A DNA stretch of 64,000 nucleotides, from sequence record PQ657772.1; one strand, given 5' to 3'. The stretch comes from Escherichia phage EC.P1. The position numbers and the translations under genes were made by a program. Below are positions 40,405 through 46,114 of the stretch, piece by piece. Within the stretch, counting starts at the first letter, position 1, and the number at the start of each line of letters is the position of its first letter. The notes beneath the pieces were generated by a model that was not told where the DNA came from, ran no database searches, and saw nothing but the letters and a program-made list of their open reading frames with translations.

Positions 40405-41499
40405 TTAAAAATCTCCTAATATGTTACCTAATCCGAATTTTGAGCTTGCCGAAGAAACGATGCTTCCTAAACCAATAGCATTTGCACCTCTTGTCACTGC
40501 GGAACCTATGTTTCGGATGGTATCAGGAGTAATGTCACCACGAAGGATATCACCAGCACTACTGATTATATCACTAACTGATGTTCCTGCTCGGATAATT
40601 TTACCAACTGTCGAAATTCCTTTAGTTTTGTCATCAAGTTCACCAAAGTACTTAAAGAATCCACTCACACCAAGACCTTCAGTATCGGTGATGAGTTGTG
40701 CAATTTCCATTGTAGGAACACCAATACTCAAGTACCCTTCAGGACCAAAGTTGTTACACGCTTCATAACGCATAGTCAACGATAATAGTGCTGGGTCACC
40801 TTCACTTTCCATAGATTTAGTTTCTAATTGTATATCTTCGATGAATACATTTATCATGTTATGAACTGTATAGGTTTCATTATCAATTTCATAGATATTA
40901 ATTGATTTGAAAAAGTACTGGTTGTCGTAGTTACCATTGTTCATTACAGAACGACCCCAGTTTCCACCTAAACCATTGAAATTTTCTGGTGTACTGAGTA
41001 CGTCATTTCGGTAAGATTGTGGGTTCTTGTCAAAGAAGTCACCATAGTAGAACTTACGATATGCGTCCATTAGGAGATATCCAGCACCATCAACAGTATC
41101 ATAGAAAACAACATTACTGGGTTTATAAACAATATCACCAGTAACTAAACGTTTTTTGTTGTATTGGTTTACGGTTTCAACACTAAAAGAAAAACTAGGA
41201 AGTGTTACATCTTTTACAAAGCACGATACATTATTAACATCAAAATCAGTATGTGTATCTGGAAGTTGGGTTTTAATAAAGTTCTTTGCGAACGGGGTTA
41301 GTACAAATTCGATAATAAAACTGTTCTTAAATTTTGGTAAATTATAGAATGAAAAACCCATTTCACCTGCTGTACCAAACACACGTTGTGCAGCGTTATA
41401 ATTCTCAAAAGCTGGTTCTCTAATGATGTTGATATTGTCAATAACACCATTAACTATACTAGTTCCAGTACTGACAAATGAATCAAAAAAATCACTCAT
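40405..41499 (-). CDS. tail tube family protein (gp19-like fold; possible tube initiator or cap)
   Basis: Pattern NLPKFKNSFIIEF ... CFVKDVTLP ... VTGDIVYKPSNVVFYDTVDGAG matches the gp19-family signature seen in the two shorter paralogues; larger size (364 aa). Confidence 0.5.
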   Translation of the reverse strand: MSDFFDSFVSTGTSIVNGVIDNINIIREPAFENYNAAQRVFGTAGEMGFSFYNLPKFKNSFIIEFVLTPFAKNFIKTQLPDTHTDFDVNNVSCFVKDVTLPSFSFSVETVNQYNKKRLVTGDIVYKPSNVVFYDTVDGAGYLLMDAYRKFYYGDFFDKNPQSYRNDVLSTPENFNGLGGNWGRSVMNNGNYDNQYFFKSINIYEIDNETYTVHNMINVFIEDIQLETKSMESEGDPALLSLTMRYEACNNFGPEGYLSIGVPTMEIAQLITDTEGLGVSGFFKYFGELDDKTKGISTVGKIIRAGTSVSDIISSAGDILRGDITPDTIRNIGSAVTRGANAIGLGSIVSSASSKFGLGNILGDF

Positions 41500-41510
41500 G
41501 GGTTATCTCC

Positions 41511-42287
41511 TTATAATCCAATGCTACCGAAAACACGGTCAATGATATCTAATCCTTGGTTTACGTTTTCAGGTAAAAGTGAATTTATTCTAGTACTGTA
41601 CATTTCTTCGATATTATCGAATTGGATACAATTATCAGGTTTTATTGTAATAACCATTTCAACAGGAGAACTTGAACTATAGTCAAGTGAATCATATGAT
41701 ATATTTTGTATAACACATCCTGTTAGTACAAAGTACTCCATAACGCCAGCACTATTGTATGATGAACCACCAATGAACTGATCAACAGCGTTGACTAATC
41801 CAGTATTGTTGGTAGCGGCAGTTGTTGCATTAACTAATGTGTTTCTTCCCAAGTCTTCTAGTGTATCATCAGAGTTGCGACCATTCAACATCTGAATGAC
41901 AATTCCGAACTTATATGAACCATAATCATGGTCAGTTCTGGAAGTAATTCTTCGTTGAAAATCTAATTGTTTCTGTAATTGTCTTGACAAGGCTTTTGCT
42001 GATGCATTACCAACTGAATCACGGATAGTTAAAGTAATTGGGTCCCAATCGTGACTACCAATGTAAGATGTATTTGTTGTAAATTGATATAGTTTATGAG
42101 TACTGAAAGTAACAGTAGGTCTATCAACTTTATCAACATCTAATGCAATGTGATCACGCTCATCTATATCAGTACCGAAATTATATACAATAACACGAAA
42201 TTTGTATTTTGCTTTCGGTTGTAACATTGAACGGTTACGTCCTGATGGTAGAGGAACGCCATATTTATTAATCATGTTATTTGCCAT
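41511..42287 (-). CDS. tail tube protein paralogue 2
   Basis: N-terminus YGVPLPSGRNRSMLQPKAKYKFRVIVYNFG paralogous to 42377-43063; gp19-like motif. Confidence 0.6.
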   Translation of the reverse strand: MANNMINKYGVPLPSGRNRSMLQPKAKYKFRVIVYNFGTDIDERDHIALDVDKVDRPTVTFSTHKLYQFTTNTSYIGSHDWDPITLTIRDSVGNASAKALSRQLQKQLDFQRRITSRTDHDYGSYKFGIVIQMLNGRNSDDTLEDLGRNTLVNATTAATNNTGLVNAVDQFIGGSSYNSAGVMEYFVLTGCVIQNISYDSLDYSSSSPVEMVITIKPDNCIQFDNIEEMYSTRINSLLPENVNQGLDIIDRVFGSIGL

Positions 42288-43442: not shown

Positions 43443-43450
43443 TTAGTGTT

Positions 43451-46114
43451 TTATTGAGTCTTTTCAATACGAATAGGTACGTAAATGAAGTTGATAGACT
43501 TGGTAGGTTGGATTGCAATATCCATCCAAAGTTCGTTACGGTCAATACGTTCAGAAGTGTTGTTACTTTCGTCACAAACTACTGCGAAGTTATATAGACC
43601 TTGTTGTTGAACGATTTCAGCTAGGAAGCTATTCACTACACCACTGAATTCCTGACGAGTACTTGGAGTATTCAAACGGAATAGGAATGGTTCAGAGATG
43701 ATTTCTAGTTGACGACGAATGTAAACAACCAAACGAGCAACGTTAACACGGCTTAGTGCAGAGGTTTGGTTAGCAGATAGTGTTTTATCACCATATACTA
43801 GCAAGCCACGGTTAGGACGCATTGCAATTGGGTTAATGTTGTTGGTATACATCACGTCACGTTGACCTTGGTTGTATACTACTGGTTGATATTCACCTTC
43901 ACTATTAATGAAACCAGTACTTGCAGCGTTGGTTACAACACCACGAGTAGTACCAGCAGGTGGATACCACACATAACTAACACTATCACTGTACGCATAG
44001 GTACGCATTGCAACAGTACTGCCTGGAACTGCAACTTCTTCACCATCAACGTTAGTACTTAAACACCAGCCCATGTACTGAGCAGCATAATCATATGCAG
44101 AAGTACGGCCTACTGAACCATTACTTGGTGCGTTGTTTGCGTTGGTAGCCCATTCTTGAACTGCACTACCGTTTCCGGTTGGGTTCAAACGAGCAGGTAC
44201 ATCAGTTACGATAAACGCTGTTTCTTTACGATCAGTGTTTAGGGTAATACATTCATCTAGAGTTTCTACATAACCAGGAACACAGATTAGGTTAAAGTTG
44301 ATGAATTCAGAACGGATATCATCATTACCGATGATTACAGCAGCTAGTGCTTCAACGATTAGTTTGCGTTGTGCTGCACGACCGAATAGACCTGCACCAT
44401 CAAGACTAACACCACTAACAACTTGCCATTGACCATTAACCATTTTCTTAACAACACCTTCGGTATTACCGAGGTCAATTGCAAGCATACCATTCTGATA
44501 AAGAGCAGCAGAAGCAACTTGTTCAGGGAAGTTAAAGTCAGCGAAAATCATACCGTTTAGAGTACTTTGGTCAGTATTGTCTAGTTTAACCCACTCACCA
44601 TCAACGTTACGATAGAAATCATAACCATCAATTCCTTGAGATAGAGGGCGTACCCAAATTAGACGGTCTGCCGCAGGTTCATCAACTTGAACATATTTGT
44701 TATCTTCTTGTACTAGATCCCATTCGTCATTTGCAACATCTGCAATGTACATGGTAACAGTTAGGTTATCGGAATTGCCGAAATCATACCAAATAGTACC
44801 GTCTTTAGCAATACTACGTGGAACAGAAGAGCTAACACGTAAGTTATTAACGTTAACTAGAGAATAGTTGTTACTATCTACAGTTAGTTTAGCTAGTTCA
44901 TTCGCTGCAAAAATATCATCACCGCTTTGGGTAACTTTAAAGCTATAACCTTTGGTGTTTGTAACTACCAAACCGCCATTAGATTCACGTTTGAATTTGA
45001 ATCCATCATTGATAAGATCAGCACTAACATTTAGATTATCGATGATAGTTTGAGTATTAATTACGCCACCTTGTGGTACTGCAAGTACTTTAACAGATTT
45101 GTTTAGGTAAGCGAAAGTCAAATAACTATTTTCACCAGCTTGCTCAATAACAGTTTCACCTAGTGGTACTGCTGGAGCACTAATTGCTGATAGTTTTGCA
45201 CTTTGAATATAGAAAGAGAAACTCTTACTATCGTCATCAAAACGGCAAGCAATATAACTGTTGTTTAGTACACCACTCTTAGCTTCAACTTCTTGGAAAG
45301 AATTACCAGTATATGCTGGAACGATATTCCAAACTTGAGTTAGAGATGCATAACGTTTTAGAACAAAGCGAGTACCAAAATAGTTTGAACCATTTTGAGT
45401 ATAACCATCACGAATCCATACGTTACCTTGTTCAACAGTTGAACCAACTGGAACTTTGTTGATTGGTGATAGATAAGTTTCAACCTGTACTAGACCAGAT
45501 GCTGCACGTTTGTACATAAGCATTTGACCATTACTTGGCTTATAACGTAGAACTAGATCATCAACGTTTAGACCAACTAGGCTAACATCGTCAACTTCTT
45601 CAGAACTTACGATGGTAACAGGCTTCAATTGCCAGTCATAGAAGCTGCTTGGGCTGTCTTTCTTAGCAACATAAGCTTCAATTTGTGATTGAGCAGCATC
45701 AAACCATAGAGTACCATTTGGTACTGGGCCAGTTGGTGCAGTTGCACTTGGTGATAGTTGAGCCAAATCGATATCAGCACGAATAACATATGCACGGTTG
45801 GTGATACCTAGATAAGAATATACAGCATGTAGACCATATTCGTTTAGTTCGTCACCTTGAACAACTGAACCATTGTTCATTTGGAAAATTGGTGAGCCAA
45901 ATGTATCTAGTGAGCTTTTCTGTGATGTTAGTAGCTGTAGTTTACCAGCGTTTGCTTTAGTGGTTCCCGCAGCGATTGCACTGCTACCAGGAACAAGTTT
46001 GTCTTCAGCAGTAGCGATTACAAATAGTGGTACTGTGCCAGGAGCAGCAGCAGTACTCATACTTTCATCAGTTACTGAAATGGAAACGCCAGGTGAGAGT
46101 AGATCTCCTGCCAT
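43451..46114 (-). CDS. tail sheath protein
   Basis: N-terminus MAGDLLSPGVSISVTDES resembles contractile sheath N-termini (T4 gp18 MTLLSPGIELKETTV); 887 aa; GGAGGA RBS; terminator downstream; tube genes follow. Confidence 0.85.
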   Translation of the reverse strand: MAGDLLSPGVSISVTDESMSTAAAPGTVPLFVIATAEDKLVPGSSAIAAGTTKANAGKLQLLTSQKSSLDTFGSPIFQMNNGSVVQGDELNEYGLHAVYSYLGITNRAYVIRADIDLAQLSPSATAPTGPVPNGTLWFDAAQSQIEAYVAKKDSPSSFYDWQLKPVTIVSSEEVDDVSLVGLNVDDLVLRYKPSNGQMLMYKRAASGLVQVETYLSPINKVPVGSTVEQGNVWIRDGYTQNGSNYFGTRFVLKRYASLTQVWNIVPAYTGNSFQEVEAKSGVLNNSYIACRFDDDSKSFSFYIQSAKLSAISAPAVPLGETVIEQAGENSYLTFAYLNKSVKVLAVPQGGVINTQTIIDNLNVSADLINDGFKFKRESNGGLVVTNTKGYSFKVTQSGDDIFAANELAKLTVDSNNYSLVNVNNLRVSSSVPRSIAKDGTIWYDFGNSDNLTVTMYIADVANDEWDLVQEDNKYVQVDEPAADRLIWVRPLSQGIDGYDFYRNVDGEWVKLDNTDQSTLNGMIFADFNFPEQVASAALYQNGMLAIDLGNTEGVVKKMVNGQWQVVSGVSLDGAGLFGRAAQRKLIVEALAAVIIGNDDIRSEFINFNLICVPGYVETLDECITLNTDRKETAFIVTDVPARLNPTGNGSAVQEWATNANNAPSNGSVGRTSAYDYAAQYMGWCLSTNVDGEEVAVPGSTVAMRTYAYSDSVSYVWYPPAGTTRGVVTNAASTGFINSEGEYQPVVYNQGQRDVMYTNNINPIAMRPNRGLLVYGDKTLSANQTSALSRVNVARLVVYIRRQLEIISEPFLFRLNTPSTRQEFSGVVNSFLAEIVQQQGLYNFAVVCDESNNTSERIDRNELWMDIAIQPTKSINFIYVPIRIEKTQ

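Follow-up and report, generated by a model that had tools for sequence, protein, structure and literature searches.

When three genes for tube-like proteins follow a single tail sheath gene, which of them encodes the tube, and what is left for the other two to do? We addressed this question in a stretch of 64,000 nucleotides (nt) from Escherichia phage EC.P1 (sequence record PQ657772.1), referred to below as the window, to the whole of which all coordinates refer unless another sequence is named. A block on its minus strand, from 40405 to 46114, holds a sheath gene followed by genes for tube-like proteins of 228, 258, and 364 amino acids (aa), here called tube1, tube2, and tube3. The region is the conserved tail sheath and tube module of an Asteriusvirus (RaK2/121Q-like) jumbo myophage. 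An initial annotation of the window had described this gene run, and all four open reading frames (ORFs) were found where it had placed them; it had also proposed that tube1 and tube2 were two co-equal major tube proteins. We came to a different reading, which we hold with moderate confidence to be the probable one: tube1 would be the major tube protein, tube2 and tube3 would form low-copy rings at the ends of the tube, and the sheath and tube1 genes would be expressed as separate late units.

Homology and fold of the three tube proteins

The relationship among the three proteins was initially examined by sequence and profile comparison. Tube1 and tube2 aligned from end to end with 32% identity (E 2e-35), and the near-identical N-terminal motif previously noticed in the two was indeed common to both (KYGVPL...QPKAKYKFRV). 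Together with the N-terminal arm, the motifs RDSVGN, YKF, GC.I, DYSSS, and QPD.C were found in each member of the pair. Tube3 matched tube1 and tube2 only marginally by BLASTP (E ~0.01). When the tube1/tube2 profile was compared to the tube3 profile with hhalign, the two matched with a probability of 98.3% (E 1.6e-14) over residues 52 to 256, and reciprocal hidden Markov model searches against the 312 ORFs of the window recovered tube1, tube2, and tube3 as the sole ORFs. The two PHROGs families to which the three proteins were principally assigned (phrog_4542 and phrog_13438) both carry the name "tail tube protein," and weak matches to phrog_45, the family of T4 gp3 and gp54, were obtained for tube1 and tube3 (E 2.7e-3 and 1.9e-4). 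In a Pfam search of the three proteins no family, the gp19 family included, reached E 0.1, and sequence searches of the PDB with the same three proteins returned nothing meaningful and no solved close relative.

Structure prediction gave results in keeping with the profile comparisons. The AlphaFold2 (AF2) model of tube1 had a predicted local distance difference test score (pLDDT) of 79.8 and 76 PDB matches at E<=0.001 in Foldseek, with tail tube proteins on top. These were the tube of Klebsiella phage KP1, T4 gp3 (9mkb_AC), T4 gp19 (5w5f), Pvc1/Pvc5, and Afp1/Afp5, each at a probability of 1.0, and the target-normalized template modeling (TM) scores to the top tail tube structures ranged from 0.74 to 0.84. 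The tube3 model had a pLDDT of 60.9 overall and a good core only, at residues ~55 to 272. This core matched the same set of tube structures more weakly (target-normalized TM 0.54 to 0.68), with T4 gp3 first, followed by a gp54 homologue and Afp5. Tube1 and the tube3 core, as modeled, have the contractile-tail tube fold, which consists of a beta-sandwich core, one helix, and a long beta-hairpin. The proteins here are larger (228, 258, and 364 aa) than T4 gp19 and gp3 (163 and 176 aa), and the matches to T4 are at the level of the family rather than one to one. Alignment, profile comparison, PHROGs, and Foldseek thus agreed with the initial annotation that three tube-like paralogues lie beside the sheath gene. 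It had also named structure prediction as a check on whether these proteins have an Hcp/gp19-like fold; the fold was seen for tube1 and for the tube3 core, and tube2 is placed in the same superfamily by its full-length homology to tube1.

Two cysteine positions drew attention in the alignments. The Cys in the GC.I strand was invariant across 58 aligned members of the tube1 and tube2 families, and a second Cys, in QPD.C, was common to tube1 and tube2 of the window and aligned with a Cys of tube3. The residues are C153 and C182 in tube1, C191 and C220 in tube2, and C248 in tube3. These conserved cysteines may form a disulfide or a metal site.

Probable identity of the major tube protein

The gene content of related phages bears on which of the two small tube proteins came first. 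The phages PA5oct (Wroclawvirus; gp287/gp286) and Atu_ph07 (gp127/gp126) have the same module as the window, made up of a sheath gene, a terminator, a promoter motif, a small tube gene, a second terminator, a tube3 orthologue, and a head closure gene, but each has a single small tube and no tube2. The gene order is sheath, homing endonuclease, 206-aa tube, 492-aa protein, 151-aa protein, and head closure in PA5oct and sheath, 193-aa tube, 328-aa protein, and head closure in Atu_ph07. Their large proteins are tube3 orthologues (hhalign probabilities of 99.7% and 99.8%) that share only the core with tube3, and the PA5oct tube proteins are flagged in the sequence record as detected by electrospray ionization tandem mass spectrometry (ESI-MS/MS). 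We considered whether the PA5oct 492-aa protein was a fusion of tube2 and tube3 and rejected this, as it matched the tube3 profile at 99.7% and the tube1/tube2 profile at merely 12.9%. By tblastn, RaK2-like phages hold two tube1-like places per genome (true of ~76 of the 92 phage records with a tube1 match), and one such place was found in PA5oct-like, Sinorhizobium, and Agrobacterium phages and in the Xanthomonas phages XacN1 and Xoo-sp13. In a neighbor-joining tree, tube1 and tube2 grouped together, apart from the single-copy tubes. On the basis of this tree, and because a single small tube accompanies the tube3 orthologue in PA5oct and Atu_ph07, we consider tube2 to be a clade-specific duplicate; tube3, which is conserved out to both of these phages, appears to be older than tube2. 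Compared to tube1, tube2 has 33 additional aa in a conserved loop insertion, and its C-terminal arm, likewise conserved, is a different one; the protein is intact and of constant length (251 to 258 aa) across many genera and metagenomic relatives. The locus offers a clean, dated case of tube gene duplication with apparent specialization.

The arrangement of regulatory motifs separates tube1 from the other two tube genes. The sheath and tube1 genes each look like a self-contained promoter-gene-terminator unit, with the motif ATAAATA upstream and a hairpin followed by a T-run downstream (Table 1), and tube2, tube3, the gp4-like head completion gene, and later genes appear to form a separate operon behind a weaker variant of the motif. 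The same regulatory plan was found in the window, phAPEC6, RaK2 (Alcyoneusvirus), and CBB (Mimasvirus). In these four, ATAAATA lies 45 to 51 nt before the sheath ATG and 34 to 42 nt before the tube1 ATG (36 nt before the single tube gene in PA5oct), the variant GCTAAATA precedes the tube2 ATG by 33 to 35 nt, and the gap of 9 to 15 nt between tube2 and tube3 (11 nt in the window) contains no signal of either kind. The position of the sheath terminator was kept in phAPEC6, RaK2, CBB, and PA5oct, with another stem in CBB and in PA5oct. That of the tube1 terminator was also kept, with three unrelated stems (one in the window and phAPEC6, one in RaK2, and one in CBB), and a terminator follows the PA5oct tube gene as well. 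Since unrelated stems stand in the same place, selection has probably acted on the structure of the tube1 terminator rather than on its sequence. The two terminators of the initial annotation (43415-43442 and 42332-42360) closely match the minus-strand hairpins at 43444..43423 and 42360..42337. Its description of tube genes each separated by terminators holds after the sheath gene and after the 228-aa gene, but none was found between the 258- and 364-aa genes. The graded expression that it deduced is plausible, but this would not be a matter of read-through alone, as each terminator is followed by a late-promoter-like motif of its own.

We then asked how ATAAATA is placed in the window as a whole. 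Counting both strands, 7 of its 9 occurrences were 25 to 60 nt upstream of a gene start on the same strand (the actual distances being 28 to 50 nt), at 11185(-), 11214(+), 27273(+), 38873(-), 39395(-), 43105(-), and 46171(-), compared to 1/25, 2/26, and 2/31 for control AT-rich heptamers put through the same placement test. CTAAATA variants precede the genes starting at 42287, 49753, 61852, and 15572. In CBB and GAP32, ATAAATA stands upstream of structural genes and has been predicted to be the late promoter; its resemblance to the T4 late promoter was pointed out, and phages of the CBB clade encode a gp55-like sigma factor (PMC5259590). The T4 late promoter is of the gp55 type, and the motif described here is similar to it; the exact T4 late promoter, TATAAATA, was absent from the whole window. 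The annotation of RaK2 includes a gp55-like gene; none was found in the 64-kb window. A scan for sigma-70 promoters returned 19 sites versus 26.5 in shuffled sequence and was discarded. Judged by its placement, ATAAATA looks like the late promoter of phage EC.P1.

Conservation, codon usage, and virion proteomics were then compared among the three tube genes. Within the block, tube1 showed the highest conservation (its identity to the counterparts in phAPEC6, RaK2, and CBB was 97.4%, 78.4%, and 75.4%), and tube2 was the least conserved of the three, with 60% identity to CBB versus 75% for tube1. Tube1 has also kept the ancestral promoter-gene-terminator setting, as seen in PA5oct. The fraction of Arg and Gly codons of the preferred CGY and GGY types was 0.95 for the sheath and 0.96 for tube1 but 0.55 for tube2 and 0.67 for tube3, the bias being significantly lower in these two genes (Fisher p 3e-4 and 3e-3), and the same pattern was seen in RaK2. 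Orthologues of all three proteins have been detected in phAPEC6 virions (gp275c, gp274c, and gp273c). Presence of more than one of them in virions was a condition set by the initial annotation; such detection tells nothing of copy number. In the CBB virion table, 6 peptides are given for tube1 (~7 being detectable) and 9 for tube3; there is no entry for tube2, even though its detectable peptides outnumber those of tube1.

Several points weigh against this assignment of roles. The Arg/Gly codon proxy was picked after the data had been seen, the difference in CBB had the same direction and was not significant, and a second proxy, the fraction of two-fold codons ending in C, separated the three tube genes only weakly (0.40, 0.35, and 0.41). 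The main-text table for CBB is not quantitative, because the sheath too is missing from it, and in phAPEC6 the three proteins had similar numbers of detected over detectable tryptic peptides (2/7, 3/12, and 7/18). Peptide counts from virions were rejected as a measure of stoichiometry because tryptic peptides of 7 to 30 aa cover just 27% of tube1. The promoter and terminator activities are predicted from sequence. Finally, the tube3 model is poor outside its core, where residues 1 to 50 and 273 to 364 are low-confidence extensions, and the Foldseek scores of tube3 against T4 gp3, the gp54 homologue, and Afp5 lie within one order of magnitude of each other.

Candidate roles of tube2 and tube3 at the tube ends

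The T4 tail provides one precedent for several tube-fold proteins in one particle. Its set consists of gp19, which forms the tube, gp54 and gp48 at the junction of baseplate and tube, and gp3, the tube terminator; one protein polymerizes, each of the remaining ones makes up a single ring at a tube end, and we propose the same for the module described here. The T4 genes are found at three loci, whereas all three tube genes here are clustered with the sheath gene. A second precedent comes from the extracellular contractile injection systems Afp and PVC, which are phage-derived bacterial particles and not phages, with a gene order that differs from the one in the window. Afp1/Afp5/Afp7 and Pvc1/Pvc5/Pvc7 each comprise a major tube protein, a close paralogue that serves as a specialized ring, and a larger protein with a tube domain, which is the pattern of the set found here. 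Afp7 and Pvc7 carry a LysM domain; no LysM domain was found in tube3 by Pfam search. The phiKZ tail likewise has a tube protein (gp30), an initiator (gp88) that aligns well with the tube core domain, and a terminator (gp98) whose C-terminal extension runs as far as the sheath (PMC13250141). Tube3 resembles gp98 in having a tube-like core followed by a long C-terminal extension. The neck and tube chains of phiKZ were among our Foldseek matches at low TM scores (0.3 to 0.4), without any sequence relation, and the phiKZ genes are not clustered as they are here. As T4, Afp/PVC, and phiKZ show, several tube-fold paralogues are standard in contractile systems, and the arrangement is not unusual, contrary to its first description.

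We propose the following model. The sheath and tube1 genes would each be a late unit of their own, with an ATAAATA gp55-type motif upstream and an intrinsic terminator downstream, which fits two proteins needed in ~150 copies each. The weaker CTAAATA motif after the tube1 terminator would start an operon for tube2, tube3, the gp4-like protein, and further virion proteins. Tube1 would be the major tube subunit. Tube2 would have arisen from tube1 within the RaK2-like lineage, gained its loop and its new C-terminal arm, and come to form one or a few specialized hexameric rings at one of the tube ends. As PA5oct does without tube2, this protein probably took over a subset of the positions of the ancestral tube protein, comparable to the Afp5/Pvc5 ring. 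The tube3 ring would join the tube either to the neck, as a terminator like T4 gp3 or phiKZ gp98, or to the baseplate hub, as an initiator like gp54, gp48, or Afp7. By analogy with the systems described above, we infer that both tube2 and tube3 form low-copy hexameric rings, and the copy numbers and ring positions of all three proteins are put forward on the same grounds. A likely major tube protein of 228 aa and two low-copy ring proteins would give concrete targets for fitting electron cryomicroscopy (cryo-EM) maps of the tail.

For tube3, the role of a terminator is slightly favored: its best fold match is T4 gp3, its long C-terminal extension is like that of phiKZ gp98, and its gene stands before the gp4-like gene. 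The initial annotation had called it a possible tube initiator; a tube-end adaptor is plausible, but we lean toward the opposite end. In addition, the T4 gene order 1-3-2-4 is echoed here by the genes for the deoxynucleoside monophosphate (dNMP) kinase, sheath, tubes, tube3, and gp4-like protein, with two differences: gene 1 is followed here by the inserted sheath and tube genes, and a gp2 homologue is lacking between the genes for tube3 and the gp4-like protein. The C-terminal tail of tube3 itself (residues 273 to 364, at ~40405-40680) is conserved, rich in Gly, Ser, Ile, and Ala, ends in KFGLGNILGDF, and is predicted to be helical at very low confidence; it is not common to the PA5oct or Atu_ph07 orthologue. 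As an arm, this tail could extend to the sheath or neck; alternatively, it could plug the lumen.

Alternatively, tube2 and tube3 could together make up a two-layer tube initiator on the baseplate hub, like gp54/gp48 or Afp5/Afp7, with the terminator encoded elsewhere. We consider this unlikely, though it is the least improbable of the alternatives. The size pattern of a tube protein, a close paralogue, and a larger, divergent protein with a tube domain is that of Afp1/Afp5/Afp7 and T4 gp19/gp54/gp48; Afp5 (6rao_F), the gp54 homologue (9f4a_BQ), and 5iv5 baseplate chains are among the top Foldseek matches of tube3; and the tube2 and tube3 genes are immediate neighbors. However, these genes lie beside neck and head completion genes and outside the baseplate/hub cluster (gp26, a tape-measure-like protein, gp5, gp25, and gp6), the best match of tube3 is the T4 terminator, its gene occupies the position of T4 gene 3 between gene 1 and genes 2 and 4, and tube2 is absent from PA5oct and Atu_ph07. 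Comparison by hhalign of the family profiles to the single T4 gp3, gp48, and gp54 sequences gave probabilities of ~1% or less, and PHROGs do not tell gp3 from gp54 for tube3, because these two share phrog_45. In the part of the RaK2 genome that we inspected (20.7-112 kb), the annotation names no homologue of gp48, gp54, or gp3.

The second alternative is closest to the initial annotation and supposes that tube1 and tube2 are both major proteins, copolymerized as hetero-hexamers or in alternating rings. Both are kept in every RaK2-like genome sampled, they have the N-terminal arm and core motifs in common, and phAPEC6 virions yielded both orthologues, each with a comparable share of its detectable peptides. 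We nevertheless judge it improbable that the two are co-equal. Tube2 belongs to another transcription unit, beyond a conserved terminator and behind a weaker promoter motif, and lacks the sheath-like codon bias; it is missing in distant relatives, for whose tails a single small tube suffices; it is outside the CBB table despite its greater number of detectable peptides; and its 33-aa loop and different C-terminal arm argue against packing equivalent to that of tube1. A related and more speculative possibility, to which we give very little credence, is a non-uniform tube in which tube2 rings, which carry the 33-aa loop, are set at fixed heights among the tube1 rings and mark, by way of the sheath, the three annular sites of the "hairy" tail fibers of phAPEC6 and CBB, or a true two-component tube of tube1 and tube2; in either case, positional information would reside in the tube of a contractile tail. 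Least probable of all is that tube2 plays no structural part of its own, being a redundant copy or one in decay. In favor of this, tube2 is the least conserved of the three and missing from the CBB table. Against it, the protein is intact and constant in length across genera, both the insertion and the C-terminal arm specific to it have been conserved, a promoter-like motif and a ribosome-binding site, conserved as well, precede its gene, and its orthologue was detected in phAPEC6 virions.

Neighboring genes and phage group

The positions of the genes and motifs described here are collected in Table 1.

Table 1. Genes, promoter-like motifs, and terminator-like hairpins of the sheath and tube region
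Feature	Position	Strand	Details
ATAAATA late-promoter-like motif	46165-46171	-	50 nt upstream of sheath ATG
Tail sheath protein, 887 aa	43451-46114	-	PF17482 E 1.7e-14; phrog_10581 full length; C-terminal domain like T4 gp18 (PDB), E 4e-22
Hairpin + T-run, intrinsic-terminator-like	43423-43444	-	6 nt after sheath stop; 9-bp stem, free energy (dG) -14.4 kcal/mol
Small ORF, 48 aa (MEEILKKTLQDVSK...)	43221-43367	-	In Asteriusvirus-specific spacer between sheath terminator and tube1 promoter motif
ATAAATA late-promoter-like motif	43099-43105	-	35 nt upstream of tube1 ATG
Tube1, 228 aa, proposed major tail tube protein	42377-43063	-	phrog_4542 E 7e-86; AF2 and Foldseek
Hairpin + T-run, intrinsic-terminator-like	42337-42360	-	16 nt after tube1 stop; 10-bp stem, dG -13.0
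CTAAATA variant motif	42322-42328	-	34 nt upstream of tube2 ATG, directly after tube1 terminator
Tube2, 258 aa, tube1 duplicate, proposed low-copy tube-ring protein	41511-42287	-	phrog_4542 E 1e-80; homology to tube1
Tube3, 364 aa, proposed tube terminator or initiator ring	40405-41499	-	phrog_13438 E 2e-225; weak phrog_4542, phrog_45
gp4-like head completion (head closure) protein, 142 aa	39976-40404	-	PF08722 E 8.6e-17; phrog_218 E 1.2e-39

The 5.7-kb block was 99.7% identical in nucleotide sequence to that of Escherichia phage Ecwhy_1 (Asteriusvirus) and 99.0 to 99.6% identical to those of 7 more jumbo coliphage records, among which vB_Ec-M-J is filed under Asteriusvirus; identity to 121Q, PBECO4, and phAPEC6 was 86.6%. 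Neither the genes nor their annotation is new, the phage group has been sampled well, and, apart from the tube duplication, this is a standard myophage tail module. All three tube genes already bear the label "tail tube protein" in several records, including the RefSeq entries of 121Q, PBECO4, and RaK2. In the literature searched, neither a cryo-EM structure of the tail tube of a RaK2-like phage nor any discussion of the three paralogues and what they do was found. In the papers on phAPEC6 and CBB, the three proteins appear merely as hypothetical or structural, and in the RaK2 paper (2013) the tube protein was not identified and gp106/gp107, which are abundant, beta-rich virion proteins, were proposed. 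We rejected gp106/gp107 (ORF106w/ORF107w, at 19512-20831 of the RaK2 sequence examined) as the tube: they are paralogues within phrog_9326 ("head and packaging") and are unrelated to the tube family. The assignment made here would correct that of the tube in jumbo phages of a group that is isolated widely and includes candidates for therapy.

The spacer between the sheath and tube1 genes (43064-43450) measures 387 nt and contains an insertion of ~270 nt that is also present in phAPEC6; RaK2 and CBB have 106 to 121 nt at this site. The small ORF within it has counterparts in vB_Ec-M-J (hypothetical protein EcMJ_283) and, in a shorter form of 41 aa, in phAPEC6 (gp276c). Because the PA5oct gene between sheath and tube encodes a Hef-like homing endonuclease, the spacer may be an insertion hot-spot or a remnant.

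Upstream of the sheath gene are the dNMP kinase gene (46209-46835) and a gene for a neck (head-tail adaptor) protein. At the other end of the block, the ATG of the gp4-like gene abuts the stop codon of tube3, and the two are assigned to the same operon; this junction suggests translational coupling of a tail gene with a head completion gene. The PF08722 match of the gp4-like protein is to the N-terminal domain of TnsA-like endonucleases. Elsewhere in the window, the minus-strand gene at 35741-36730 encodes a virion structural protein of 329 aa that is extremely acidic (rich in Glu and Asp). It ranked 4th of 61 genes in codon bias, which suggests that it is a highly expressed late protein.

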